From the IMG/VR virus record IMGVR_UViG_3300029319_007025, positions 1 to 62,818 of that record: a stretch of DNA of 62,818 bases. The stretch is one strand, 5' to 3'. The notes under the pieces are model-generated. The model searched no databases, was not told the DNA's origin, and saw only the letters and a list, made by a program, of their open reading frames with translations. The position numbers and the translations under genes were made by a program. This document shows, piece after piece, positions 101 through 62,818 of the stretch. The stretch's first letter is position 1. Every line of letters starts with the position of its first letter. This DNA comes from a virus (lineage: Duplodnaviria > Caudoviricetes).

Positions 101-789
101 AGGGCAGGAGCATACTAAGGAACGCATATCGGTCATGGTATTTCATGAAGAAACTTCAAGAGATCGAAGCGATTGGCATTGAGCGTGATCTTAGCGGTTT
201 ACCTGTGTTGGAGGTGCCTCCTGAAATAATGTCTGCTGACGCGTCAGCATCAGACAAGACGTTGCGAACCGACCTTGAAAAGCTCGTCCAACAAATAAAG
301 CGCGACGAGCGAGAGGGTATGGTTATACCTTCTGAACTCGATACCGAGGGCAACCCAACGGGCTATCGGTTTAGGTTATTGAACTCTGGCGGACGACGTG
401 CGGTTGATGTTGATGCAGCAATCAAGCGATATGAGTCACGAATGGCTATGTCCATGATGGCAGAGTTTCTATTGCTTGGCATGGATAAGGTTGGTTCGTT
501 TGCTCTTGCGTCCACAAAGACACATTTATTTAGCGTCGCTTTAGGGACGGTCATTGATAGCGTTTGCCAAACGTTTAGCAGGTTTGCAATCGGGAAGCTC
601 ATGGAGCTGAATGGTGTAGCTCCTGACATATGGCCAACACTAGAGCATGGCGATATCGAAGCGCCTGAATTGAAAGAGATAGCAACGTATGTCACAAGCC
701 TTTCTGATGCCGGCATTCTTGTACCTGATGAGAAGTTAGAGTTGAGAATGCGTGAACTCGCCAACCTACCTGTACCTGAGGATGTCTAA
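1..789 (+). CDS. Portal protein, C-terminal part (DUF935/Mu gp29-like); gene starts at 62209 and wraps the origin, about 432 aa in total
   Basis: Frame is open from base 1 and continuous with 62209-62818; NPEGRSILRNAYRSWYF and GSFALA motifs; follows terL and MuF. Confidence 0.9.
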   Translation, partial: QDPNAGNYGKASIVYLPIERSLLFRTQTNRNNPEGRSILRNAYRSWYFMKKLQEIEAIGIERDLSGLPVLEVPPEIMSADASASDKTLRTDLEKLVQQIKRDEREGMVIPSELDTEGNPTGYRFRLLNSGGRRAVDVDAAIKRYESRMAMSMMAEFLLLGMDKVGSFALASTKTHLFSVALGTVIDSVCQTFSRFAIGKLMELNGVAPDIWPTLEHGDIEAPELKEIATYVTSLSDAGILVPDEKLELRMRELANLPVPEDV

Positions 790-1538
790 TGGCGTACATG
801 ATAAAAGAAATATTTCAAACGGTGCAAGGCGAAGGCAAGCGCACCGATGAAGAGTCAACGTTTGTTAGATTCACAGGATGCAACCTTTGGAGCGGTAAAA
901 CAGAAACAAGGTATAAAGGCAGAGGAGCGTGTGCTTTTTGGTGCGACACCGCTTTTGCTACGGGTGAGCGTTATAAAAATACCGACGAGGTTTTGCTTCA
1001 CATGGAACAAGCTAGGGCTGAGTGCGATATGTTCGCAAAAGACAAGTCACAGAAATGGTGTGTGTTAACAGGAGGAGAGCCTTTGCTACAAGTGGACATG
1101 GCACTTGTTGATTGCTTACACTCTGAGGGTTGGATGATTGCCGTTGAGACGAACGGCACGGTTGCTAACGAGGTTGCGGACGAGATTGATTGGATGTGCG
1201 TTAGCCCCAAATTAGATCACGAAGGACGCCTAGGAAATCTCAAGATCGTGAAGGGGCACGAAATGAAAGTTGTGGTTCCAGGTGCTGTCTCTGGGTTATT
1301 GGGCTGGACGACACAGCGGCTATTAGATTTGCAACGCGCCACCGACTTTGAGAATTATTATGTACAACCCCAGGATCCAATAGTGAAGACGAGCACAAAT
1401 AAATCATACCTTGTTGGAAGTTATGCTGAAGGCGAATATCCGTACAATGCGCGGCTAAGTTTTTGTAGGGAGTTTGTAGACAAGAATCCAGGTTGGCAGG
1501 TATCAATTCAAACACATAAAGAGCAGGGCATTCGATAG
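789..1538 (+). CDS. queE: 7-carboxy-7-deazaguanine synthase, radical SAM
   Basis: [39 protein letters not shown] motifs; Cx16Cx3C cluster motif. Confidence 0.95.
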
Positions 1539-1549
1539 GAAGAAACATT

Positions 1550-2122
1550 ATGGAACACAAAACAGAACAAGAAGTACACGATGCAATCAGAACACTGCTA
1601 CGGTGGGCAGGCGACGATCCGAGTCGAGAGGGTTTGATTGATACACCCAAGCGCGTCGCTAAAGCGTATGGCGAATGGTTTAGCGGCTACGCACAGGATC
1701 CAAAGGATATTCTTCAAAGAACATTTGAAGAGAGCGGCGATTATGATGGCATAGTGTGTTTGAGGGACATTCCTTTCTCGTCACACTGTGAACATCACAT
1801 GGTGCCTATTATCGGCACAGCACATGTAGCGTACCTCCCCGAGGGCAAAGTTGTAGGCATTTCAAAACTCGCTAGGGTTGTCGAAGCATATGCAAAGAGG
1901 TTGCAGATCCAAGAGAAGATGACAAACCAAATAGCGACAGCGATTGATGATGTGCTAGCGCCTAAAGGCGTTGCCGTTCTTATCGAAGCGCAGCATCTTT
2001 GTATGACTACAAGGGGAGTGAATAAGCTCGGAGTCAGTATGGTCACGTCCTCACTCAAGGGTGTGTTCATGGAAAATCTTGATTCACGTACAGAAGTTTT
2101 AGCATTACTAAAAAGCAGATAA
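1550..2122 (+). CDS. folE: GTP cyclohydrolase I
   Basis: [39 protein letters not shown] motifs. Confidence 0.98.
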
Positions 2123-2135
2123 CGTAGGAGGCAAC

Positions 2136-3788
2136 ATGCCGTTACCAATACCAAAAGCAGGTGAGACAAGAGAATCATTCATAACACGGTTCATGGATGA
2201 CAAGAAAACAATAGAAGAGTTCCCGAGAGCGTTGCAGCGTTACGCAATCGCTGTGGGTGCATGGGGCAGGTATAATAAAGTTCGTAAGAATAAAAAGTAC
2301 ACTGTCGCTGTTGTGACCACACGCGACGGAAATAGATATACCGTAAACGGTGCACAGCAAAGCACGTTAAAACTTGAGAGGGGTTTGGTTTATACGTTCG
2401 ACCAAACGTCCGGCACAAACACAATGCACCCGCTGCAAATATCGACCGTATCTGATGGCCCTCATGCTGGCGGGCCTCAATACAATAAAGGTTGGCGCGA
2501 CAATGGAGGCAGAGCGGGAGCAACATTGATATCAACATTCACTGTACCCGCTGATGCTCCTGCACGTCTGTACTACTATTGCAGTAATCACGCAGGTATG
2601 GGTGGAAAGATTGAGGTTAGAAACACAGCGACAAACAAGGCAGAGCCAGGTTCAGCACGTGACGATGCTGACCAAAGCCAACCGGCAGCACCTGACGAAA
2701 GGCGTAGAGGTTCAGGTAGGAACGCACCTGGTTCAGCGTCAACGGAAGGCGGCGCAATTCGTTTGTCTCCTGCAACGGATAGGACACTTCAATCAAAACT
2801 TGATGCACACCATGAGAAGGTCGGCAATGATAAGACGAAGCGCACAACACTAAGAGCGCTACAAGCCGTGTACCGACGCGGAGCGGGTGCGTTTAGCGTA
2901 TCGCATCGCCCAGGAATGGCTCGGGCACAATGGGCAATGGCAAGGGTGAATCATTTTCTACATTTACTTGAAACAGGAAAGCCGAAGGATCCAAAATACA
3001 TCACTGACAACGACCTTTTACCTGAAGGACATCCTGCTATTGTTGAGAAGCAAGACAGCTTCAAACCTCCTAAAGCTGTAAGGGATGTAGCAGCAAGAGG
3101 GCTTGAGCTACGTCGCGAATGGGGCAGAGGCGGTATGGACGTAAGAGAGGCAGCCCGCATTGGTGTAGGCAGTGGCGTACAGCGAGCGACAAATCTCAAG
3201 AACGGTGATAACGTTACGCTCGACACAATACGGCGAATGGTTCGTTTCTTCCAACGGCACTCAACCCACTTCAAACCTAACAAGCTCAAACCAGACGGCG
3301 GGCCAACAGCAGGCACGATTGCGTATTACCTATGGGGCGGCACACCAGGAAAGGAATGGGCAAATAGAATTTGGGATAAGCACGGTGAGTGGAAGAAGCA
3401 GGAAACACCTGCGCACTTTGGCGGAGGAAAGAACATAGAGATTTTCGGCTATGAGACGAAGCATTTCGACATTTGCAAAAGCGCTGTCTTGCTTTTTGAA
3501 AGGCTAATAAAGGATGCGGCATCAGAGAAAGACGCTGTTGAGAGCGCAGCAAAATACCTCGACGAGTTTTTTGGATTAGAGAAAAAGGTTGTTGGTGAAG
3601 GTGAGTCAACAACCGAAGACGCGTTGCAAGCTATGGATCTTGTCTCTTTGTTTACGTACGAGTTAGGCAAGGTTGCAAAAGGTGCTGACCTTGATCTCAC
3701 CCGCAGCTTCGCTTTTATCACGATGCATTTCTATGAGATAGGCAGGCGCATGGTTCCAGAGGAAAGCGAAGAAAAGCATACAAGCTAG
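2136..3788 (+). CDS. Modular head-associated protein (short N-terminal helical module, cupredoxin-like domain, DUF5824-like domain, two further helical modules)
   Basis: HPL...YYYCSNHAGMGG; YRRGAGAFSVSHRPG...QWAMARVN; GxxRA...TIRRM...LWGG modules recalled from phage head-region proteins; SD GGAGG; position in head operon. Confidence 0.6.
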   Translation: MPLPIPKAGETRESFITRFMDDKKTIEEFPRALQRYAIAVGAWGRYNKVRKNKKYTVAVVTTRDGNRYTVNGAQQSTLKLERGLVYTFDQTSGTNTMHPLQISTVSDGPHAGGPQYNKGWRDNGGRAGATLISTFTVPADAPARLYYYCSNHAGMGGKIEVRNTATNKAEPGSARDDADQSQPAAPDERRRGSGRNAPGSASTEGGAIRLSPATDRTLQSKLDAHHEKVGNDKTKRTTLRALQAVYRRGAGAFSVSHRPGMARAQWAMARVNHFLHLLETGKPKDPKYITDNDLLPEGHPAIVEKQDSFKPPKAVRDVAARGLELRREWGRGGMDVREAARIGVGSGVQRATNLKNGDNVTLDTIRRMVRFFQRHSTHFKPNKLKPDGGPTAGTIAYYLWGGTPGKEWANRIWDKHGEWKKQETPAHFGGGKNIEIFGYETKHFDICKSAVLLFERLIKDAASEKDAVESAAKYLDEFFGLEKKVVGEGESTTEDALQAMDLVSLFTYELGKVAKGADLDLTRSFAFITMHFYEIGRRMVPEESEEKHTS

Positions 3789-3795
3789 AACGCTC

Positions 3796-4656
3796 TCATT
3801 TCAAATCATTTACAAATTCTCTATATAACCTGCCATCATTACTATACGTAAATATTTGATAGTTCTTACTTTTGGTATGTACCCCGTATAGGCCCCACTT
3901 CTCTGCAATCACCATTGGTATATTTTCTTTTGGTATTGTTATTACAGGACAGGTGCTCAAACCTATTATGTTTTCTTCGCCCACGGCATCGGCAATAACT
4001 TTTGAATTTCTATCTATTCTATCGCGTAGCTCATGGATACTAAACCTTTTTAGTATTGTTAAAAAATGGTCATATATTTGGGTGGGTGTTGTCGTTGGTG
4101 TTTGGTTCAGTAATCCATATTCATAATATCTTCTGAGATTTAAGTAGCTGAACTCATTTGAATCTTTCAAGCGTGTCCAATAGTTTTTCTTCACACCAAT
4201 TATTGCGAGCCCTGGAAAGCTGCCTAATTGCTTATTAACACAAGTTATAAATATATTCGTGCTCTTTGGTATGTCGTAGTATGGAAAGGAACTGACCACA
4301 TCAACCACGCCCTCGTCTTCGTGATAAGAACTATTAGAAGTTTCCAACTGACAATACAATTTTTCTCGGCGGTATTTTGACGACCCTTCTTTACCATATG
4401 TTCTTACTAACCTTTCCCACCTGTTCCTAAAAACACCTTCATTACCGACAACTTCGATAGGATCAACCAATGACCATACAACCGATTCTATTGCGGTCGT
4501 TCCACTACCACCCATAAATATAATATCGTAATCCCCTAATCTAAATACCTCGGTGAATAAAGTTTTCAAGCGTCCATACGTATGCATAAACTCTTTGTCT
4601 CTATGTGAGTGTAGGACAACACTCTCTGTAGCAATTGATGTATTAGGGCCGAACAT
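3796..4656 (-). CDS. PLP-dependent class V aminotransferase-like protein (PhnW/SerC-like)
   Basis: FGP start, HRD, GSGTTAIES, ETS, DVVSS, NKQLGSFPGL (Schiff-base Lys), TPTT; visibly AT-rich and on the opposite strand. Confidence 0.8.
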   Translation of the reverse strand: MFGPNTSIATESVVLHSHRDKEFMHTYGRLKTLFTEVFRLGDYDIIFMGGSGTTAIESVVWSLVDPIEVVGNEGVFRNRWERLVRTYGKEGSSKYRREKLYCQLETSNSSYHEDEGVVDVVSSFPYYDIPKSTNIFITCVNKQLGSFPGLAIIGVKKNYWTRLKDSNEFSYLNLRRYYEYGLLNQTPTTTPTQIYDHFLTILKRFSIHELRDRIDRNSKVIADAVGEENIIGLSTCPVITIPKENIPMVIAEKWGLYGVHTKSKNYQIFTYSNDGRLYREFVNDLK

Positions 4657-4833
4657 GTTCTTTTAATTCCTTATACACCAACACATTGGCCATGACACTT
4701 GGTAACGGCGACGATGTTGGTTTATCTTACTACGGGACCTTATGATTATTTTGTAGGTATGAAAAAAAACAGCAAATATTTATCATACTTCAAACGTGCA
4801 GAGTGCGCGCTGTTAGGTGTATAAGTTATTCCA

Positions 4834-5445
4834 ATGAAGAAAAAAGCTTTATGTCATATCAGTGGCGGGCTTGATAGCGCAATGGTTGCTGTCAAGTGTT
4901 TAGAAAAATACAACCTTGAGGGGTTCTTTCTTGATTATGGGCAAAGGTATGCAGAGCAAGAGCAATGGGCGGCAAGTAACGTTGCAAGACGTCTTGGTAT
5001 AAAGTTACATTCGGCAAGGCTGACAGGCATCACCGTTGAGTCAGAGAACGAATGGTTCCCAGCGAGAAACCTATACATAGGCGCTCTGTCTTTTTCTATG
5101 GCGAGCCGCCTTGGTTGTTCAGCAATATTGGTTGGCAGTAAAACAAATGAATACCGCGAAGACGATGAGTATTGCTGGCACGACTGTACGAGAGTATTCC
5201 ATGAGAAATTACAAGAGCTTGGCAATCGTGCTCTTGACTTTCCATCTCAAGAGATTGAGGTTTTACAACCATTGCTTGGTTGGAGTAAGCAAGAGGTTGT
5301 TGACGGGCTAAAGGCAGCAAGGATTCCTTTACACGAACTTTGGAGCTGTTATCGTCCCGACAAAGATGGACGCTCATGTGGCGTGTGCTATCACTGTGTA
5401 GAGCTAAAGAAGCTAGGTGTTTGGGAATGCGTACACTCTGCGTAG
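4834..5445 (+). CDS. queC: 7-cyano-7-deazaguanine synthase
   Basis: SGGLDS PP-loop, DYGQR, PARN, WSCY...CGVCYHC zinc site; no glutamine amidotransferase domain. Confidence 0.92.
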   Translation: MKKKALCHISGGLDSAMVAVKCLEKYNLEGFFLDYGQRYAEQEQWAASNVARRLGIKLHSARLTGITVESENEWFPARNLYIGALSFSMASRLGCSAILVGSKTNEYREDDEYCWHDCTRVFHEKLQELGNRALDFPSQEIEVLQPLLGWSKQEVVDGLKAARIPLHELWSCYRPDKDGRSCGVCYHCVELKKLGVWECVHSA

Positions 5446-5750
5446 ATATCGACGGCGTTCTAACACGCGATTGGAAGTCAATGGATTTTGAGAACAGGCG
5501 TCCTCATAAGACAAACATAGCGCGGCTCGCTGATGTATATGCAACAGGCATGGTGCAAGTTGTGCTTTGGACTGCGCGACCTGGCTCAATAAGAAAACAA
5601 ACCGTGAAGTGGTTAGAGGATAATAACGTTTCATACCACGAACTATGGATGGACAAACCTAGCTTCGTTGCGATTGTCGATGACCGTTCAATGACAAGTG
5701 TACCGACAGCGAAACAACTCACAGAGCTACGTGGTTGGGATCTTGTATAA
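5427..5750 (+). CDS. Minimal capless HAD-superfamily phosphatase
   Basis: DIDGV (motif I), WTAR (II), KP (III), VDDR (IV); ATG at 5427 overlapping the end of queC. Confidence 0.85.
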   Translation: MRTLCVDIDGVLTRDWKSMDFENRRPHKTNIARLADVYATGMVQVVLWTARPGSIRKQTVKWLEDNNVSYHELWMDKPSFVAIVDDRSMTSVPTAKQLTELRGWDLV

Positions 5751-5761
5751 AGGAGAGATCA

Positions 5762-7093
5762 ATGAGTGACATAAAAAAGGATTATCAAATACGCCCCTAC
5801 TTTGCTGTAACAGGGACACAGCAAATAGCATTGCTAAAAGAGCAAGGCATAAAAGACATACTGATTTCATATGCACATATCCAAAAAAAAGGTGTACCTG
5901 ATATTCTCAAGAATTGTCATGTTATGCTTGACTCAGGTGCCTACTCGAACATCAAAAACCCTGGGTCGGTTAAGCTCGAAGCCTACATGGAGTTCTTGAA
6001 ATCAGAACGCAAAAAAGTCGCTGAGTACGTTGCGCTCGATGTTGTCCACAATCAGAAACAGACATCAAAGAACTATGAGAAGATGTTGAGGGAAGGGTTT
6101 AACCCGATATTCGTTGACCAGCTTTGCAGCCCCGGCGGGCTCGACGGCACAACCAAGTGGGCGTACAAGTCAGGCAAGAAGATTTGTTGGGCAGGTTTTG
6201 TTATGCCATACAACCACAGAATCAACGCGAAGAAGCGACTTACCCCAGGCGTCAATGATGGTGTGCTAAGTGTATGCGCTGAACGTTTCAACCTTGTAGA
6301 CGCATTTCCAAAAACGAAGCTACATCTTCTTGGTATAGGTTCACGAGGGAGAAGGTTCGTTCCTTTCTGGCGTCAGGTTGAATCAATTGATGCCGCGTCA
6401 TGGATTATTAGGCCACAAGCATTTGGTCAGGTGTTGCACCTTAATAGAAGTAAGGAAGGTTGGCCCTCGTTGAGCACGTCAACCTATGACGCACCAAGTC
6501 AAGAAGCGCGTCAAATAGCGAGCAGGTATGGTTGGAATTTACGTGAGGTTCCCGGCAGGGTGCGTCTCTCGATTCACGAGTATAAACGATACTTTAGAGC
6601 ATTAGAGAGTCGCATGAAACAAGCGATAGAAGAACACAATGCTGAATCGGACGTTGATAAATCCGTGAGTGTTAGTGTTCCTGATACACTAACAGACGAC
6701 AGCAAAAGTGTACATGATATCGCTATCACCTTGCCTATACACAAAGTGGACGATGACCAAAGATTGATAACAGGCATTGTGCTTGAACCTGAAGAGGTTG
6801 ACGCACAGAACGACATCATAAGCGTTGATGAGATTCAGGACGCAGCATTCAGGTTTTTGTCAAAATACAATAAAGATACCAAGCTAGGATTGATGCATAA
6901 AATATTTGAGAACATAGGCGTTGTCCTTGTCGAAAGTTGGATTGCAAAAGAGGACGACACCGTGAATAAAAAGCCAGTCAAAAAAGGCAGTTGGTTGATG
7001 ACTGTCAAAGTATTAGAGGATGGGCTTTGGAAAAAAGTGAAGGATGGTAGTATAACAGGATTCTCTATTGGGGGAGTCGCAAGGGTTTCATAG
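5762..7093 (+). CDS. Fusion of TGT/DpdA-like base-exchange transglycosylase (N-terminal) and XkdF-type prohead serine protease (C-terminal)
   Basis: N-term LDSGAYS, ALDVV, LHLLG, SIDAASW; C-term GIVLEPEEVDAQND, LMH, VESWI, KKGSWLM, GFSIGG; SD AAGGAG before ATG 5762; single uninterrupted frame. Confidence 0.85.
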   Translation: MSDIKKDYQIRPYFAVTGTQQIALLKEQGIKDILISYAHIQKKGVPDILKNCHVMLDSGAYSNIKNPGSVKLEAYMEFLKSERKKVAEYVALDVVHNQKQTSKNYEKMLREGFNPIFVDQLCSPGGLDGTTKWAYKSGKKICWAGFVMPYNHRINAKKRLTPGVNDGVLSVCAERFNLVDAFPKTKLHLLGIGSRGRRFVPFWRQVESIDAASWIIRPQAFGQVLHLNRSKEGWPSLSTSTYDAPSQEARQIASRYGWNLREVPGRVRLSIHEYKRYFRALESRMKQAIEEHNAESDVDKSVSVSVPDTLTDDSKSVHDIAITLPIHKVDDDQRLITGIVLEPEEVDAQNDIISVDEIQDAAFRFLSKYNKDTKLGLMHKIFENIGVVLVESWIAKEDDTVNKKPVKKGSWLMTVKVLEDGLWKKVKDGSITGFSIGGVARVS

Positions 7094-7163
7094 CAAGCAC
7101 TTGCTCTTAGTTTATATTTTTGCTACGCCTACACTAACACTGGCAGTAAGACAGGACACGGAA

Positions 7164-8174
7164 ATGGAATTAGATAAAAAGACCAAACAGCCGCGGCGTC
7201 TAACTAACCTAGATATTCGTGAGGTATCGTTAGTGGACCGTCCTGCAATCAGACGAGAATTTTTGGTTATCAAACGTGACCAAGACAATAACAACAATGA
7301 GGAACCAGACATGGCAGCAGATGACATGCAACAGGAACTCTTCTTCGCCGACAGCGACATGGAGAGTGATATTTCTAATATGGTAGATGCCGAAGTTGAA
7401 AAAGCGATGGAGCTAAAACCTGCAACGCTAAAAGCAATCAAGGATATGTACCAACGTATAGATCAGGACATGCACGAGAATGACGGCAGTGATAAGAAAA
7501 TGCTCGAACGTCTTGCTGCTATGATAGCTCAAGTCCTTCATAAGATGGGGCATGGCGATAAAGAAAAAGGCGGACACTACGGCGAAGAAGACGAGAAAGA
7601 TAAGAACGTCGAAGCCAAAAAATCCGCAACTAAGGAAGAGGTTATGACTGAAAGTGACAATCAAGAAAGCATAGCTTTGGCGAAGAACGAGGACGGATCG
7701 TATGACCTTTCTTCTCTTCCCGAGGCGATCCGTGAACCATTTGCTACATTGTGTAAGCAGAATCAAGAGGCAGTTGAAAAAGCAGCAAAACTTGAGGAGC
7801 TTCTCAAGGCAGAGCAAGACGAACGTCTTCGCCGTGACTTTGTTCAGAAGGCAGAGAATGAGTACACCAACATCCCAGGAACATCCGTCGAAGTTGGTCT
7901 GCTACTAAAATCTCTACACGCGGCAGACGCTGAACTCGCAGCAAAGGTTGAAGAAATTTTCAAAGCAGTAAATAGCCAACTGGCTAACTCAGAGCTTCTT
8001 CGTGAAGCAGGTTCAAGTGAAGAGCCAGAGTCAACTTCTGCTTGGGGACAAATTGAGAAACAAGCAGCAGGCTTAGTTGCCGAGGGCTTGTTCAATAGCA
8101 AAGCGGAGGCTGTTTCTAAAGTTCTAGAAACCAACCCTCGTCTTTATCAGGAATACCTGAAGGAAGGTAACTAG
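7164..8174 (+). CDS. Scaffolding protein with N-terminal protease-associated segment
   Basis: LTNLDIREVSLVDRPA N-terminus, acidic coiled-coil body, NPRLYQEY C-terminus; lies between protease and capsid genes. Confidence 0.75.
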   Translation: MELDKKTKQPRRLTNLDIREVSLVDRPAIRREFLVIKRDQDNNNNEEPDMAADDMQQELFFADSDMESDISNMVDAEVEKAMELKPATLKAIKDMYQRIDQDMHENDGSDKKMLERLAAMIAQVLHKMGHGDKEKGGHYGEEDEKDKNVEAKKSATKEEVMTESDNQESIALAKNEDGSYDLSSLPEAIREPFATLCKQNQEAVEKAAKLEELLKAEQDERLRRDFVQKAENEYTNIPGTSVEVGLLLKSLHAADAELAAKVEEIFKAVNSQLANSELLREAGSSEEPESTSAWGQIEKQAAGLVAEGLFNSKAEAVSKVLETNPRLYQEYLKEGN

Positions 8175-8564: not shown

Positions 8565-9557
8565 ATGGGTAATCCAGTTTCAAGTGCCGTTCATGTAAAT
8601 ACCCCGTTGACCAACGTCAGCGTGGCATACATGCAAAAGGCAGATTTATTTATCGCGCACAAAGTGTTTCCACAAGTGCCGGTATCAAAGCAAAGCGACA
8701 TTTACTACACGTATGACAAGGATGACTTCCGACGTTCAGAAGCACAGCTTCGTGCCCCAGGCACGGAGAGCGCAGGCGGCGGCTATCGTCTTGACTCAAC
8801 GAATACATACTTCGCTGCTGTCAATGCTATCCACCAAGACATCGGTGATCAGGTTCGTGCGAACGCTGATGCTGTCTTGAACATGGACAAAGACGCCACC
8901 GAATATGTCACTCAGCAGTTGATGCTGAAACGTGAGAAAGATTGGGTAAGCAGCTTCTTCCAACTCGGAACATGGACGGGTGGTATTCGCCCTTCAACTT
9001 CAGGAACCGGAGATCTCGATGGTGCGGGTGCTGACTTTACACAATGGAACTCAACGGGCGCGACTCCTGTCTTCGACATCACTCGTCAAAAGAATGAGAT
9101 TCTAAAAGGCACAGGTTACATGCCGAACACTTTGGTTCTGCATCCAAATGTCTATAACGCACTCATCAACTCAGACGACATTGTAGATCGTGTGAAGTAC
9201 ACGCAGCGCGGCGTCCTTGGGCCTGACCTTCTTGGTGCGGTTCTTGGTATTGACCGAGTATTCGTTGCTTACGCTGGTGAGAACACAGCAAACGAAGGTG
9301 CTACCGCAGCTAACGCATTCATTGGCAGCAATGAAATTGCACTACTTTGCTACAGCGCACCTGCTCCTTCACTTATGCATGCTTCTGCTGGTTACACGTT
9401 CACTTGGAGCGGGTACACTGGTGCTCAAGACGGTATGCGTATTTCTCGATTCCGCATGGAAAATCTTCGTGCTGATCGTGTTGAAGGTGAACTTGCATAC
9501 GACCAGAAGCTGATCTCTGCTTCTCTCGGACAAGTTTTCAAAAACTGCTTGGCGTAG
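8565..9557 (+). CDS. Major capsid protein (HK97 fold, lambda gpE-like)
   Basis: 330 aa; LTNVSVAY, FPQVPV, RAPGTES, PNTLV motifs; SD and synteny. Confidence 0.9.
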   Translation: MGNPVSSAVHVNTPLTNVSVAYMQKADLFIAHKVFPQVPVSKQSDIYYTYDKDDFRRSEAQLRAPGTESAGGGYRLDSTNTYFAAVNAIHQDIGDQVRANADAVLNMDKDATEYVTQQLMLKREKDWVSSFFQLGTWTGGIRPSTSGTGDLDGAGADFTQWNSTGATPVFDITRQKNEILKGTGYMPNTLVLHPNVYNALINSDDIVDRVKYTQRGVLGPDLLGAVLGIDRVFVAYAGENTANEGATAANAFIGSNEIALLCYSAPAPSLMHASAGYTFTWSGYTGAQDGMRISRFRMENLRADRVEGELAYDQKLISASLGQVFKNCLA

Positions 9558-32438: not shown

Positions 32439-32896
32439 TCCGACGAAGAATGTTCCACATATTCGCGAACGATAGTCAAAAACTCATCAAACAAAACAGC
32501 AACATGGGGGGTATCCGTTTGCTTTGCAAATGGCGCACTAAACCTGTAGTCATTCATGTGGTGTCCAAATATAATATGGAGATGCGCCATTCTCAATGTC
32601 ACATAAATATTCTTTGTGCGTGTCTTATGTGTGACCGCTATGGGTATTAGCTCATCAACCAACCCGGCAACGCTGACATCATGCTCTGCTTGCTTTAGCT
32701 TTTTCAACGGGGTTGGATTCATTGCGTCCTGGCATTCAATCCAAAAACCAGGCAACCCTGTCACGTCTGACTCCTCTGCTTGCCGTGATTGAATAGAGCG
32801 TCTAATAACCTCTGCGTACTTTGGGAAGCTATCGCGCAACTTACGTGCTATTTGACGCTCGAACCTCTTCCCTTTATCCCGTTGCATTTTACTCAT
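32435..32896 (-). CDS. Holliday junction resolvase-like PD-(D/E)xK nuclease
   Basis: KGKRFER...SDV...WIEC; start reassigned to MSKMQRDKG overlapping the queD stop. Confidence 0.75.
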   Translation of the reverse strand: MSKMQRDKGKRFERQIARKLRDSFPKYAEVIRRSIQSRQAEESDVTGLPGFWIECQDAMNPTPLKKLKQAEHDVSVAGLVDELIPIAVTHKTRTKNIYVTLRMAHLHIIFGHHMNDYRFSAPFAKQTDTPHVAVLFDEFLTIVREYVEHSSSE

Positions 32897-33362
32897 TGCG
32901 ATGTGTACCCGGTTCATCTCCTGGTTCATATGTCGCGCTGTTCTTATCGTTCTCTCTGACCTCAATCTTTGTTATCCAGACACGGTGGTTTGTTTTCTTT
33001 GTAACCATTGCGTTTACTTTATTGTAAGCCATGTATGCTGTACCCTCCATGCCTACGTCGTCCCAAACCCGCAAAGCACAAGCGCCTTTCTTTTCTAATT
33101 CCGTGAATGTTTCAAGCAATGGGTCGTTGGCATCAAGCAGTAACGTGTGGTCAAACATATACTCTAACCATTCCTTCACGTCCTGAAGGTCACCAAAGTC
33201 CATTACAAAGCCATTCTTTGTGCGCGTGTTACAAGCAAACCAAAATGTAAAACTGCGACTATAGCCATGTATAAAAGCACAATGTCCATCATGCTGCCAA
33301 CGCCTATGGGCGCATGGCAAGTTGTTGAATGTTTTGGTTGAGCGATAAATTCCAAGTTCCAT
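32889..33362 (-). CDS. queD: 6-carboxytetrahydropterin synthase
   Basis: CAHR, HCAFIHGY, VMDFG, FDHTLL, VREN motifs. Confidence 0.93.
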   Translation of the reverse strand: MELGIYRSTKTFNNLPCAHRRWQHDGHCAFIHGYSRSFTFWFACNTRTKNGFVMDFGDLQDVKEWLEYMFDHTLLLDANDPLLETFTELEKKGACALRVWDDVGMEGTAYMAYNKVNAMVTKKTNHRVWITKIEVRENDKNSATYEPGDEPGTHRNE

Positions 33363-38655: not shown

Positions 38656-41202
38656 TTATTTCATTTCTTCAAGCTCACCCCATTTGTAACCGATTTCACA
38701 ATCAACGGTAAGCGGCACATCGTTTGTCGCCCAACGTGTCATGAGATCTTTGACAGCACATATCAGCTCGTCCATGTGCGTTTCGTCGACTTCGAAAAGT
38801 AAACTGTCATGCACAGTCAAGACGAGCTTCGCGGGAAACTCTTCACGCAGTATCCAAGCAACACATCTTGCAAGCGACGCGAGGCAAAGATCACTTGCCG
38901 TTCCTTGCACAGGCGTATTCCAACTACCATTCTCCGCGCTCACGCGCACCTTGTCGTCCGCGTCGGCTATTCTAAACAACGGACGGACACGTCCTTTTTT
39001 TCCTTGCCATTGTGTCCATGTAACACCTGTCTTTCTCGCCTCGTACAGTTGGCCGTCACACCATGACTTGAGCTTAGGAAACTTTCCAAATATAGCGCGT
39101 CTAATATTGTCTGCCTCTGTCACAGAGCAATTGAGATTCTTACTCAACGTGAGGACAGACATGCCATACAGCAAGCCAAAGTTCACTGACTTTGCTTTCG
39201 TTCTGTGTTCCTTTGTCACGTCTTCAGGTGAAATGCCCCATGCCACGTTTGAAATCATCTCTGCCGTACGTTGATGATAATCTTTGCCTGATTGAAAGAT
39301 CGCCCGCATGGCATCGTCTTGTGACAACATAGCAGCGACCCTCAACTCTAACTGTGAGTAATCCAACTGCACAAGCACTGACCCTTTGTTTGCAACAAAA
39401 CAATTCCTCGCCATGCCTCCAAGGTTGTCAGCAGATGGACGTGGAACCTGTTGTAGGTTTGGATCTCTACAGCTTATGCGTCCACTACGCGCACCCGAAA
39501 GGTCGAACGAAGGATGGACGCGCCCATCGTCTCTAATGAATTTAGCGAAGCCCATTGCGTACGTCGAATGAAGTTTCGACAGTTTGCGGTATGCAAGCAG
39601 GTCTTCCAATGCCTGAACCTGTGATTCCTTGCTTGCGCGTTTCAACAATTTTACGAGCGTTTCTTTATCAGTCGATGGTTCGCCACTTTTTGTTTTTGAT
39701 ATCACGGGCATCTTATGTTGCTTATATAAATACTTTCTCACATCAAGCGTAGAGTTGAGATTGATGTCTGGATTGCTTGCATAGATGCGTCCAAGAACAT
39801 CACTCAACGAATCCTCTAATGCTATGCGAAAACTATCAACAGCATCGGCACTTGTCGCAACCCCCCAGCGTTCAACATATTCAATAGCAATAGCAGCAGG
39901 GCGAACCACACGTTTCCAAACCCTATGCAGCGACCTGTTCTCTTCAAGTTCGATCTCGAATACCTCACCAAGACGTGCTGTTGATATTGCATCTCTTCCG
40001 CAGTAACGGTCGCGAATTTCAGCAGGCAGCAAGCCATATGAATAGGCACCCACGTTATCTTTCATTGTACGCACAGCATCCACGCATTTCTTTGGGCCAA
40101 TGTTTCTCAATTCTTCGTCCGACGTCTTAGGTGATCTAGCAACTTTGATTGCGTTTTTCATTGCATTGTCCGCAATCTCTTTGCCTCCGCCCATGCCAAC
40201 CAACTCTTGCATGACACCCAAGCTGGCTTTTGATTCGGGTTCAAGTATTTTCCTTACAAGGCGCGTGTCCATATGTAACCCATCAACGACTGTACCATAG
40301 GCGCAGTACAGCGCGTTGCTATCAAATTTACCATTTTGTGCAACCTTGAGAACATCAGCGTCCTCCATCATGTCAAGCAGGTGTTCTCGTATCGCCGGAT
40401 CTTTCAATGCGATACCTGACCAGACATACGCATCGTCAAACGCTTTGCCTGTCACCGCTATTGAAATGATTTCAAAATCTTTATTGTGCTGAAGCCCGAC
40501 TGTCTCGCAATCGTAGCTTATCCACTCTGCTCGCTTCAATTTAGCAACAGCTCTTTTTGATTCTGCTTTACTTGAAATAAGCAAAGCTCTGCTGTTGCGA
40601 CTGCTCAACAATTTCAACTCTTCAAGCTCGACGTTTAGCGACCATTCCAAATCCTCTTCGAACCATTTAGCTAGGAAGCGATTATGCAATGCAGACACGG
40701 GGTCAATCAAAGTGAACACAGGTATGGTATCTTTTGTTATCCAACCAAAACCTTTGCGCGTTGATAGGTATGCCGTTCCTCGGCCAAGCAGCGCTGTTGC
40801 AGCCGCAGAGCCAAGAGCGAGTATGCGTTGTGGTTTTGTTTCGGCAATCGTCTGTGCAAGATAAGGGCGGCATGCTTCAAAAATTTTCGGGCGAAGGTTT
40901 GTGGAACCTGGTTTACATTTGATTCCATAATCCAACGCGATAGGACCTTGCCAATGTTTCAACAACATGCGGCGCAGCTTCGCACCTGTTGTGCTTACAA
41001 AGGGCCTGCGCTTTGCGTCATCCATAATGCCTGGATAGCCACCTACGATAAGCAATCCTCCAGGTGTGCCTTCTGCCGACATACAAACCGTCTTTGCTTG
41101 TTCATGCAGAGGACACAACATGCAACCCGAATTGACAAGCCGCGGTTGGACAATATCAATCGCTGATAATTGCGGCTCCTCATATAATTGAAGTTTCTTC
41201 AT
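38656..41202 (-). CDS. polA: Family A DNA polymerase with N-terminal UDG-like domain and 3'-5' exonuclease
   Basis: DCET exo I, NGKFD, DYSQLELR (A), RTKAKSVNFGLLYG (B), TVHDS (C); N-terminal CxxC...Cx14C family-4 UDG-like domain. Confidence 0.96.
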   Translation of the reverse strand: MKKLQLYEEPQLSAIDIVQPRLVNSGCMLCPLHEQAKTVCMSAEGTPGGLLIVGGYPGIMDDAKRRPFVSTTGAKLRRMLLKHWQGPIALDYGIKCKPGSTNLRPKIFEACRPYLAQTIAETKPQRILALGSAAATALLGRGTAYLSTRKGFGWITKDTIPVFTLIDPVSALHNRFLAKWFEEDLEWSLNVELEELKLLSSRNSRALLISSKAESKRAVAKLKRAEWISYDCETVGLQHNKDFEIISIAVTGKAFDDAYVWSGIALKDPAIREHLLDMMEDADVLKVAQNGKFDSNALYCAYGTVVDGLHMDTRLVRKILEPESKASLGVMQELVGMGGGKEIADNAMKNAIKVARSPKTSDEELRNIGPKKCVDAVRTMKDNVGAYSYGLLPAEIRDRYCGRDAISTARLGEVFEIELEENRSLHRVWKRVVRPAAIAIEYVERWGVATSADAVDSFRIALEDSLSDVLGRIYASNPDINLNSTLDVRKYLYKQHKMPVISKTKSGEPSTDKETLVKLLKRASKESQVQALEDLLAYRKLSKLHSTYAMGFAKFIRDDGRVHPSFDLSGARSGRISCRDPNLQQVPRPSADNLGGMARNCFVANKGSVLVQLDYSQLELRVAAMLSQDDAMRAIFQSGKDYHQRTAEMISNVAWGISPEDVTKEHRTKAKSVNFGLLYGMSVLTLSKNLNCSVTEADNIRRAIFGKFPKLKSWCDGQLYEARKTGVTWTQWQGKKGRVRPLFRIADADDKVRVSAENGSWNTPVQGTASDLCLASLARCVAWILREEFPAKLVLTVHDSLLFEVDETHMDELICAVKDLMTRWATNDVPLTVDCEIGYKWGELEEMK

Positions 41203-62208: not shown

Positions 62209-62818
62209 ATGGCTACAAAGAATGACAAAGTAAATTTAAATATCATAGGCACAACCGGCCTCCGCAGAGAGGATGGTTACATCTACGATGAATGGCTGCC
62301 ACAGCTCAAAGGAGATAACCGAAACAAAGTATACCGGCAGATGCGTGATAACGACGCGATAGTCGGCGCATTTATGTACGCGGTTGAGTCGCTTGTCAGG
62401 CAGGTTCATTACTATGTGAAACCAGCAAACAAAACAACGGAGGCTGCCGAGCAAGCAAAGTTTGTTGAGACATGTTTGAGTGACATGAGCCACACGTTAT
62501 CCGACTTGCTTTCAGAGATACTTACCATGCTTGTATATGGTTGGTCATACTTCGAGGTTGTTTATAAAGTTAGAGCAGGTTCAAAGAATAAAAAAGCAAG
62601 CCATCGCTCAAGGTATGATGACGGCAAAATTGGTTGGAGAAAAATATCACAGCGAGCGCAGAACACGCTTGACCACTGGGAGTTCGATGACGATGGCGGC
62701 ATCAGAGGTATGTGGCAGCAAGATCCTAACGCAGGCAACTATGGCAAAGCATCAATCGTGTACCTACCGATTGAACGCAGCTTGTTATTCCGTACGCAAA
62801 CAAACAGGAACAACCCAG
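62209..62818 (+). CDS. Portal protein, N-terminal part (continues at position 1)
   Basis: ATG 62209, MATKNDKVNLNIIGTTGL...YRQMRDNDAIVG...YGWSYFEVVY; in frame with 1-789. Confidence 0.9.
   Translation, partial: MATKNDKVNLNIIGTTGLRREDGYIYDEWLPQLKGDNRNKVYRQMRDNDAIVGAFMYAVESLVRQVHYYVKPANKTTEAAEQAKFVETCLSDMSHTLSDLLSEILTMLVYGWSYFEVVYKVRAGSKNKKASHRSRYDDGKIGWRKISQRAQNTLDHWEFDDDGGIRGMWQQDPNAGNYGKASIVYLPIERSLLFRTQTNRNNP
62719..62818. repeat. Terminal direct repeat, copy 2
   Basis: 99/100 identical to 1-100. Confidence 0.97.

Follow-up and report, generated by a model that had tools for sequence, protein, structure and literature searches.

The DNA studied here is IMG/VR virus record IMGVR_UViG_3300029319_007025 (Duplodnaviria; Caudoviricetes), and its whole length of 62,818 nucleotides (nt) is called the window. 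One open reading frame (ORF) in the head-assembly module of this marine phage encodes a fusion protein. The N-terminal domain resembles tRNA-guanine transglycosylases (TGTs) and the DNA-modifying DpdA enzymes, and it is joined through a disordered linker to a C-terminal XkdF prohead protease. Enzymes of the DpdA class exchange guanine in DNA for a 7-deazaguanine base. The structure, distribution and gene context of this fusion were analyzed, and its possible role in loading the transglycosylase into the phage head was evaluated.

The ORF at 5762–7093 was read without a stop on the plus strand and gave 443 amino acids (aa). This agreed with the sequence-only reading, an earlier interpretation of the same letters, and every motif named there was located, including VLEPEEVDAQND (Table 1). 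The start codon, ATG 5762, is also the start used by P0002, a 443-aa protein from another contig that is 96% identical. The assembly was checked by comparing contigs of four public marine runs with window positions 5700–7400. Two of the four runs covered the whole interval with zero differences; they may be the source sample, so they are not independent. A third sample from the same study gave contigs over 6510–6780, linker included, with 0 differences and 0 gaps. Another study gave three 151-nt contigs with substitutions as the sole differences. No indel was listed over 5700–7400 in any of the four runs. Run X3 had no contig over 6783–7010 and run X4 covered 12 of 30 bins, and such contig holes prove nothing. 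No RNA data set was among the runs listed for this stretch. The sequence-only reading had proposed a check of read coverage across the linker, and the contigs compared there support an uninterrupted ORF.

The single ORF could be an assembly or sequencing artefact, produced by a chimera or by overlooking a frameshift or stop in the linker. In favor of this, the record comes from metagenome assembly and the two fully spanning runs are possibly its own source. This explanation is extremely improbable in view of the unchanged contigs over the linker from an independent sample, the lack of indels in all four runs, the 96%-identical protein on a separate contig, and the identical architecture in dozens of divergent proteins.

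The N-terminal half matched phrog_887 of PHROG, annotated 'queuine tRNA-ribosyltransferase', with E 6.6e-14. A profile of 38 N-domain sequences was searched against PDB sequences. The sole meaningful match was 7UI4, the Salmonella DpdA entered as 'DNA-guanine transglycosylase' (E 6.3e-6). The AlphaFold2 model of residues 1–300 had a predicted local distance difference test score (pLDDT) of 90.3 and a predicted TM-score of 0.88, and showed a TGT-type (beta/alpha)8 barrel. Comparison of the model with PDB by Foldseek gave TGTs as 50 of the 50 matches listed, with E 2.4e-7 to 4.2e-5 and a query TM-score (TMq) of 0.44–0.59. The top match was 1iq8_A (E 2.4e-7, TMq 0.56). In BFVD, the top matches were phage queuine tRNA-ribosyltransferases. 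The protein of Microbacterium phage Megan ranked first (E 9.8e-11, TMq 0.66), and the phiST and nt-1 proteins ranked below it.

The available part of PMC10164549 describes Asp95 of DpdA as the general acid/base, Asp256 as the nucleophile, and Asp130 and His181 as contacts to the base edge. It also states that three active-site Asp are invariant across TGT and DpdA. The HMMER alignment to 7UI4, whose chain carries a 20-residue tag offset in its numbering, placed D57 of LDSGAYS at DpdA D95 and D210 of SIDAASW at D256. Among 38 sequences, D210 was invariant, and D57 and D93 of ALDVV were each conserved in at least 90%. D93 lies outside the span of the 7UI4 alignment and is presumably equivalent to DpdA Asp130. 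The TGT fold of the first half and the two catalytic Asp expected by the sequence-only reading were both recovered. Profile, alignment and model support the assignment of the N-terminal half as a DpdA-type transglycosylase fold with both catalytic Asp kept.

The barrel may be something other than a DNA base-exchange enzyme, either a tRNA-acting enzyme like canonical TGT or an inert DNA-binding or structural module. Points that would fit this alternative, and count against a DpdA, were found. Pfam TGT PF01702 did not match the protein (E ≤ 0.01) or the six-frame window (E ≤ 1), and the NCBIfam scan gave no TGT match for the barrel. The TM-scores to solved TGTs were only those given above. The column of DpdA His181 is Gln120 in the fusion protein and P0002, and His in five other aligned fusions. 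tRNA TGTs carry a C-terminal Zn-binding CxCxxC...H subdomain; the protein sequence has no CxCxxC motif, and its four Cys all lie outside such a motif. The alternative was nevertheless considered improbable. The acid/base and nucleophile Asp of DpdA are aligned and conserved, the top solved sequence match is a DpdA, which acts on DNA, and the nearest predicted structures are phage DpdA-type proteins. The linkage to Que genes is tight, DNA ligase domains share the polypeptide in relatives, and the phage has no other transglycosylase candidate, as described below.

The C-terminal half was assigned to the XkdF family, consistent with the XkdF-type protease named in the sequence-only reading. Residues 326–441 matched PF14550 (Peptidase_S78_2, XkdF) with E 2.9e-31 and 108.5 bits (cut-off 24), over profile positions 5–123 of 126. 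This half also matched the head-maturation-protease families of PHROG. D347, H379 and S435 were invariant in 38 XkdF-domain sequences and in 7 full-length fusions, and H379 and S435 are the putative catalytic pair, a role taken from the family name. The fusion protein terminates 5 residues past GFSIGG. Foldseek with the full-length model returned TGT matches exclusively, which was uninformative on the XkdF fold. A profile search found no XkdF relative in PDB by sequence (best E 0.25).

In the full-length model, residues 294–321 had a pLDDT below 50 and lay between the two folded domains. The sequence-only reading had suggested that the cargo is cut free at two Lys-Ser sites in this linker, by analogy with HK97 protease, which belongs to a protease family different from XkdF. 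The 60 residues preceding the XkdF anchor were aligned for 60 C-terminal-XkdF proteins. No conserved position, at Lys-Ser or elsewhere, was found before the P-I-x-K start of the domain. The KS dipeptide occupied 29 of 2640 linker positions compared with 221 of 38241 overall, an enrichment of about twofold that is too weak for a cleavage rule. The proposal of HK97-style Lys-Ser cleavage is thus not supported. The aligned linkers have no conserved cleavage site, and cargo release is therefore postulated from analogous systems.

The spread of the fusion was investigated by an exhaustive phmmer search with residues 1–300 against 1.84 billion representatives. It gave 402 matches at E ≤ 1e-3 and 53 at E ≤ 1e-10. 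XkdF stood at the extreme C-terminus in 46 of these 53 relatives. Seven had no XkdF (P0003, P0122, P0127, P0132, P0136, P0151 and P0167), and some of them are possibly fragments. Matches at E 1e-10 to 1e-6 were mostly free-standing proteins of 230–320 aa. The relatives were 443 to 1780 aa long, and extra domains between the N-domain and XkdF accounted for the lengths. Among nine larger relatives, the middle held an ATP-dependent DNA ligase in three and a class-I methyltransferase in one (P0160, P0124, P0143 and P0123 together). The middle was unassigned in the other five; in P0004 and P0007 it looked nucleotidyltransferase-like and LigD-phosphoesterase-like, by eye only.

A FastTree phylogeny was built from 141 domain segments after removal of 11 segments shorter than 200 aa; it had long branches and no outgroup. 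Of the 52 fused domains, 49 fell in one 55-row group with a Shimodaira–Hasegawa-like support of 99. Seven changes between fused and solo accounted for the labels on the tree, compared with 42 for shuffled labels, and none of 500 shuffles needed so few. The tree was taken to show clustering of the fused forms and nothing further.

In IMG/VR, 51 loci with a DpdA-like ORF were found, namely 6 complete fusions, 2 at contig edges and 43 free-standing forms. The sequence-only reading had proposed to look for the same fusion in related viral contigs, and it was present both here and in the phmmer relatives. QueE and FolE lay within 7 kb in 6/6 complete fused ORFs. For the free-standing DpdA loci, an XkdF gene lay within 7 kb in 0/43, and at least one Que gene was nearby in 33/43. 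When loci were found through XkdF, a TGT-like domain was present in 4 of 80, with QueE and FolE adjacent in all three that could be judged. The other 76 XkdF loci, which had no TGT-like domain, contained one QueE homologue and no FolE. At one XkdF locus, L063, a QueE-like radical-SAM gene (3375–4001) lies directly upstream of a 785-aa XkdF-terminated protein (3986–6343) with no detectable TGT-like domain, which may carry a different 7-deazapurine-related cargo.

QueC within 7 kb was missing from 6 of 8 fused or truncated loci. The idea that the fused clade has no QueC and inserts 7-carboxy-7-deazaguanine was rejected. QueC was found elsewhere in 3 of 5 fused-clade records, the one rated 100% complete included, and the two records with no QueC were 31% and 38% complete.

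The XkdF domain occurs in two forms. In the canonical form it lies near the N-terminus and is followed by 150–350 aa. In the cargo form the protein ends 5–16 residues past GFSIGG, and a strongly conserved segment opens the gene downstream. In the window this gene is the putative scaffold, and the segment is PRRLTNLDIREVSLVDRPAIRREFLVIKR, of which residues 16–38 read L-D-I-R-E-V-S-L-V-D-R-P-A-I-R-R-E-F-L-V-I-K-R. Of 63 proteins in which XkdF is not C-terminal, 62 matched the motif profile 7–18 aa (median 14) upstream of the domain. The motif was missing from 100 of 101 C-terminal-XkdF proteins, the fusion protein included. At the loci, 74 of 75 C-terminal-XkdF ORFs had it downstream within 600 nt, and L070, the one that did not, has two XkdF ORFs. 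The sole C-terminal-XkdF protein with the motif is P0039 (592 aa), which holds it internally at 299–322. P0039 has GLSIGG at 279, then the motif, then its best XkdF match at 463–578, and may hold two protease-like domains.

A programmed frameshift from 7093 into the scaffold gene was also considered and was rejected. A gap of 70 nt separates the two genes, and the scaffold starts at an ATG of its own (7164) that is preceded by AGGA. All relatives examined also stop 5–16 residues past GFSIGG. A cargo-free split form was found in the cultured Pseudomonas phage PAK_P1, where gp003 (156 aa) is essentially the protease domain alone and is followed by gp004 with a divergent motif. The XkdF gene of this type is labelled 'DNA methyltransferase' in many records of related Pseudomonas phages, which looks like a propagated mis-annotation.

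For a complex prediction, the XkdF domain was paired with residues 1–70 of the scaffold, and a 38-row alignment was used for each partner. The prediction supports binding. The docking score was 0.73 and the best of three controls was 0.00. The score is the model's own confidence, and the fold of the partner is uncertain, with a pLDDT of at least 45 and below 50 in 2 of 3 runs. Of 80 solved complexes, 58 reached the mark, as did 2 of 110 mismatched pairs, and this calibration is rough here (own alignments). The runs shared at least 57% of contacts. Since PDB holds no XkdF relative by sequence, a closely related solved structure is an unlikely source of this result. In the predicted interface, scaffold residues 10–37 face the segments with H379 and S435. 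With the motif, the scaffold may supply in trans a piece that belongs to the fold of the protease, or a pseudo-substrate that binds it tightly. That the motif has moved to the scaffold is an additional and better-supported structural finding.

The window carries an exact 98-nt direct repeat at its ends (62719–62816 = 1–98), and the portal gene runs in frame over the ends (62209–62816 + 99–789, 433 codons). The record is labelled linear with 61% completeness, but these two features make it probable that the whole genome, circularly permuted and about 62.7 kb long, is present. The gene order is terS, terL, a MuF-like gene, portal, QueE, FolE, DUF5824, an aminotransferase-like gene, QueC, an HAD-like gene and the fusion. 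After the fusion come the scaffold, a small head protein and the major capsid protein, so that the putative scaffold gene lies between the protease and major capsid protein genes. The coordinates are given in Table 1.

The phage encodes all four enzymes that make preQ0, namely FolE, QueD, QueE and QueC. The stretch from the portal gene to the fusion gene contains FolE, QueE and QueC. Because the four enzymes are encoded, the base inserted would most likely be preQ0 or a derivative of it. The aminotransferase-like and HAD-like genes lie inside this 7-deazaguanine cassette beside QueC and may modify the base further. QueF, ArcS and Gat-QueC were not recognized in the genome.

TGT-like and XkdF profiles were searched against the 507 window ORFs, and no second TGT-like or XkdF ORF was found. 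PF20314 (DUF6610, the DpdA4 family) had no match in the fusion protein or the window. The other protease families tested, PF04586 (HK97-type S78), PF00574 (ClpP), PF03420 (S77) and PF01343 (S49), had no window match, so XkdF alone was found among the five. The sequence-only reading could find no other TGT-like gene and no other maturation protease, and these searches agree with it on both points.

Table 1. Positions of the fusion gene, its domains and motifs, neighboring genes and homologous loci
Feature	Position	Strand	Remarks
Whole fusion gene: DpdA-like transglycosylase, disordered linker, XkdF prohead protease	5762..7093	+	443 aa + stop
TGT/DpdA-like TIM-barrel domain, residues 1–293	5762..6640	+	profile, model and structure matches
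Motif LDSGAYS	residues 56–62
Motif ALDVV	residues 91–95
Motif LHLLG	residues 187–191
Motif SIDAASW	residues 208–214
Linker, residues 294–321, both Lys-Ser dipeptides inside	6641..6724	+	low pLDDT, unconserved sequence
Linker motif VDKS	residues 298–301
Linker motif DSKS	residues 313–316
XkdF (Peptidase_S78_2) protease domain, residues 322–443	6725..7090	+	Pfam match 326–441
Motif VLEPEEVDAQND	residues 340–351
Motif LMH	residues 377–379
Motif GFSIGG	residues 433–438
QueE (7-carboxy-7-deazaguanine synthase)	789..1538	+
FolE (GTP cyclohydrolase I)	1550..2122	+
DUF5824 protein, 550 aa, free-standing	2136..3788	+
Class-V aminotransferase-like gene, short	3796..4656	-	weak NCBIfam matches, E 1e-9, far under cut-offs
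QueC (preQ0 synthase)	4834..5445	+
Small HAD-phosphatase-like gene	~5427–5750	+
Putative scaffold, 336 aa, acidic	7164..8174	+	own ATG, AGGA 9 nt upstream, phrog_13547
Scaffold N-terminal motif, aa 10–38, PRRLTNLDIREVSLVDRPAIRREFLVIKR	7191..7277	+	predicted to dock on XkdF near the catalytic-Ser strand
Major capsid protein	8565..9557	+	phrog_1005, E 1.8e-76
QueD (6-carboxytetrahydropterin synthase)	32889..33362	-	apart, in the replication module
DUF5824-XkdF homologue, L003	3667–4920
DUF5824-XkdF homologue, L006	4164–6944
DUF5824-XkdF homologue, L010	3321–6101
PAK_P1 (L082) XkdF protein	2983–3453
PAK_P1 (L082) motif-opening next gene	3450–4367

The domains joined to C-terminal XkdF were compared, and XkdF was frequently found at the end of other enzymes. 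The Pfam partners were PF02086 (Dam-type methylase), PF02834, PF13563, PF10469, PF18823 and DUF5824, of which PF02834, PF13563 and PF10469 are 2'-5' RNA ligase and LigT families. In GenBank, Rhizobium phages already carry the annotation 'DNA methyltransferase/prohead protease protein'. The closest relatives of the phage, L003, L006 and L010, are 66–74% identical in terL, about 80% in portal and 67–71% in the major capsid protein. Their gene order is portal, a DUF5824-XkdF fusion and scaffold. The free DUF5824 protein of the window is 71% identical over 280 aa to the L003 homologue, and its alignment to the relatives' fusion ends 7 residues short of the XkdF segment. About 2.9 kb, comprising the aminotransferase-like gene, QueC, the HAD-like gene and the DpdA domain, lies exactly at the cargo-protease junction. 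By this comparison of sequences, DpdA replaced DUF5824 as the protease partner in the lineage of the phage. The free-standing 550-aa DUF5824 protein may still be head-internal.

DpdA1–4 were defined, and post-replicative insertion was proposed, by Hutinet et al. 2019 (PMC6884629) and Cui et al. 2023 (PMC10516641). The words 'protease', 'capsid' and 'virion' are missing from the main texts of both papers. The modification of DNA with 7-deazaguanines has so far been described as post-replicative and cytoplasmic, carried out by free-standing DpdA. The fused domain shares the TGT-type barrel and both Asp with phage DpdA1–DpdA4 and bacterial DpdA (7UI4). As in phages with DpdA, it is the sole transglycosylase and is encoded together with FolE, QueD, QueE and QueC. 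The nearest named DpdA by tblastn was that of Cellulophaga phage phiSM, with 24.9% identity over 67% of the domain (E 2e-5), which is named DpdA1 in PMC10516641. Unlike known DpdA, the fused enzyme belongs to a separate clade, where XkdF is attached to 49 of 55 members. Its gene lies in the head-assembly module and not among replication or metabolic genes, and it further differs in having Gln for His181 and no match to the DUF6610 family of DpdA4.

A published parallel is the polyvalent proteins of portal-terminase phages. The available part of Iyer et al. 2017 (PMC5512222) describes effector domains N-terminal to a C-terminal assemblin-like prohead peptidase and proposes packaging and processing of these proteins. 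The layout of effector followed by peptidase is the same as in the fusion protein; the likeness is one of description, since the peptidase is called 'assemblin-like' in that part of the source and is PF14550 here. The fusion protein has a single cargo, while its relatives carry two or more cargo domains. No mention of a protease strand transferred to the scaffold was found in the available part of PMC5512222, and neither 'TGT' nor 'queuine' appears in its main text. The literature search found no paper on a DpdA/TGT-prohead protease fusion, and supplements might list such architectures. The sequence-only reading had regarded the fusion as undescribed. This holds for the DpdA/TGT cargo in the literature found, but not for the general arrangement, because effector-peptidase fusions appear in the available part of PMC5512222 and a methyltransferase/protease is annotated in GenBank. 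The new combination is a clade of DpdA committed to polyvalent head proteins that end in a protease.

Compared with canonical XkdF (PF14550, e.g. PBSX XkdF-like proteins of 300–500 aa), the fusion system has the same domain, the invariant His and Ser, the position in the head module and the strand motif. In the canonical form, the motif, XkdF and a scaffold-like tail lie on one chain (62/63), whereas the fusion system has a cargo-XkdF chain followed by a motif-scaffold chain.

T4 Alt and internal proteins (which have a gp21-cleaved targeting sequence), P1 DarB and N4 virion RNA polymerase are capsid-packaged, co-ejected enzymes. The logic proposed for the fusion is the same as for T4 Alt, P1 DarB and N4 RNA polymerase, namely prohead targeting, protease processing and ejection with the DNA. 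In contrast to a T4-type targeting peptide, the fusion would use a covalent link to the protease and docking on the scaffold. It also differs from the T4, P1 and N4 cargoes in that its cargo is a base-exchange enzyme, which requires a free base substrate.

Based on these comparisons, a packaged-cargo model was considered, in which the transglycosylase is fused to the protease, co-assembled into the head, released and ejected with the DNA. Capsid loading is plausible because the architecture is kept in 46 of 53 relatives, the polyvalent proteins offer a precedent, and docking to the scaffold is predicted. The N-terminal motif of the scaffold would dock on the protease domain and complete its fold. 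Docking would tether the cargo-protease to the scaffold, so that the fusion would be recruited to the prohead and co-assembled into the procapsid, and proteolysis would become scaffold-dependent. On activation of the protease, the scaffold would be degraded and the linker cut. The transglycosylase of about 33 kDa would then stay in the head with the DNA and later be ejected with it. The probability of this model was judged to be a little better than even.

Because the phage has a sole DpdA, the fusion protein must also carry out the bulk modification of the genome. This could take place in the cytoplasm before assembly or on DNA entering the head. The enzyme could also act in the next cell, where the ejected protein would use host preQ0.

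Several observations weigh against the packaged-cargo model. The aligned linkers show no conserved cleavage site. No cultured phage with the fusion was found among 50,697 phage records searched by tblastn with the N-domain. That search gave 23 weak matches in Rhizobium, Cellulophaga and Microbacterium phages, none with at least 80% coverage; the annotated ones were hypothetical proteins or queuine tRNA-ribosyltransferases, and their hosts were not among the best XkdF matches. No literature on procapsid or virion proteomes showing the enzyme or cargo-XkdF fusions was found. The motif touches the active-site strand and could serve the protease as a substrate or a site to cut, instead of completing its structure. 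The limits of the docking score and of the partner pLDDT apply as well. Modification of a whole genome by a sole DpdA is easier to picture in the cytoplasm than in a packed head, and the fusion could be a by-product of cassette insertion at a permissive linker.

The last two points lead to an alternative in which the fusion reflects co-expression or insertion. DpdA would modify replicated DNA in the cytoplasm late in infection, like other phage DpdAs, and have no in-capsid role. Copies dragged into the prohead would be degraded or expelled and would serve no function there or in the next host. The sole DpdA in the genome fits this explanation, since bulk modification falls to the fused domain. 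So does the position of the DpdA cassette at exactly the junction where XkdF of the relatives is fused to DUF5824, as if a cassette had landed in a permissive linker. However, a single insertion leaves unexplained that 46 of 53 relatives keep the fusion at less than 40% identity and that a dedicated clade holds 49 of 52 fused domains. An XkdF gene lies within 7 kb of 0/43 solo DpdA loci, and the linkage is therefore clade-specific. The fellow cargoes are DNA-acting or counter-defence domains (DNA ligase, methyltransferase, Dam-type methylase and 2'-5' RNA ligase), which fit the delivered effectors described in the available part of PMC5512222. The cytoplasmic alternative was therefore rated rather unlikely, and the packaged-cargo model was retained.

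A broader interpretation is offered tentatively and would need to be treated as a doubtful one. Many phage XkdF proteases may be two-chain enzymes completed by the scaffold, and one clade of marine phages may use this to load its sole DpdA, so that modification, or an early protective activity, would take place in the capsid or upon entry and not only in the cytoplasm. The clade has its DpdA welded to a head-maturation protease, with pathway genes inside the head-assembly module, which makes the timing and place of 7-deazaguanine modification, and possible delivery to the next host, directly testable. The relocated motif suggests a general rule that would confine the recruitment of XkdF proteases, and perhaps their activation, to proheads. 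Such a rule would explain the swappable cargo, which includes DpdA, DNA ligase, methylases, 2H phosphoesterases and DUF5824. The split rule is testable in the laboratory because the cargo-free form occurs in cultured PAK_P1-type Pseudomonas phages.

Two further observations were made. The window encodes a family-A DNA polymerase with an N-terminal uracil-DNA glycosylase (PolA-UDG) at 38656–41202 on the minus strand (PF03167 + PF01612 + PF00476). The available part of PMC13697223 (2026) describes PolA-UDG fusions from phages with T-modified genomes, and this polymerase may point to a second DNA modification in the phage. LAGLIDADG inteins were observed in the portal gene of the fused-clade phage L028 (54–2843) and in the DNA ligase domain of P0143, a DpdA-ligase-XkdF protein of 1735 aa.

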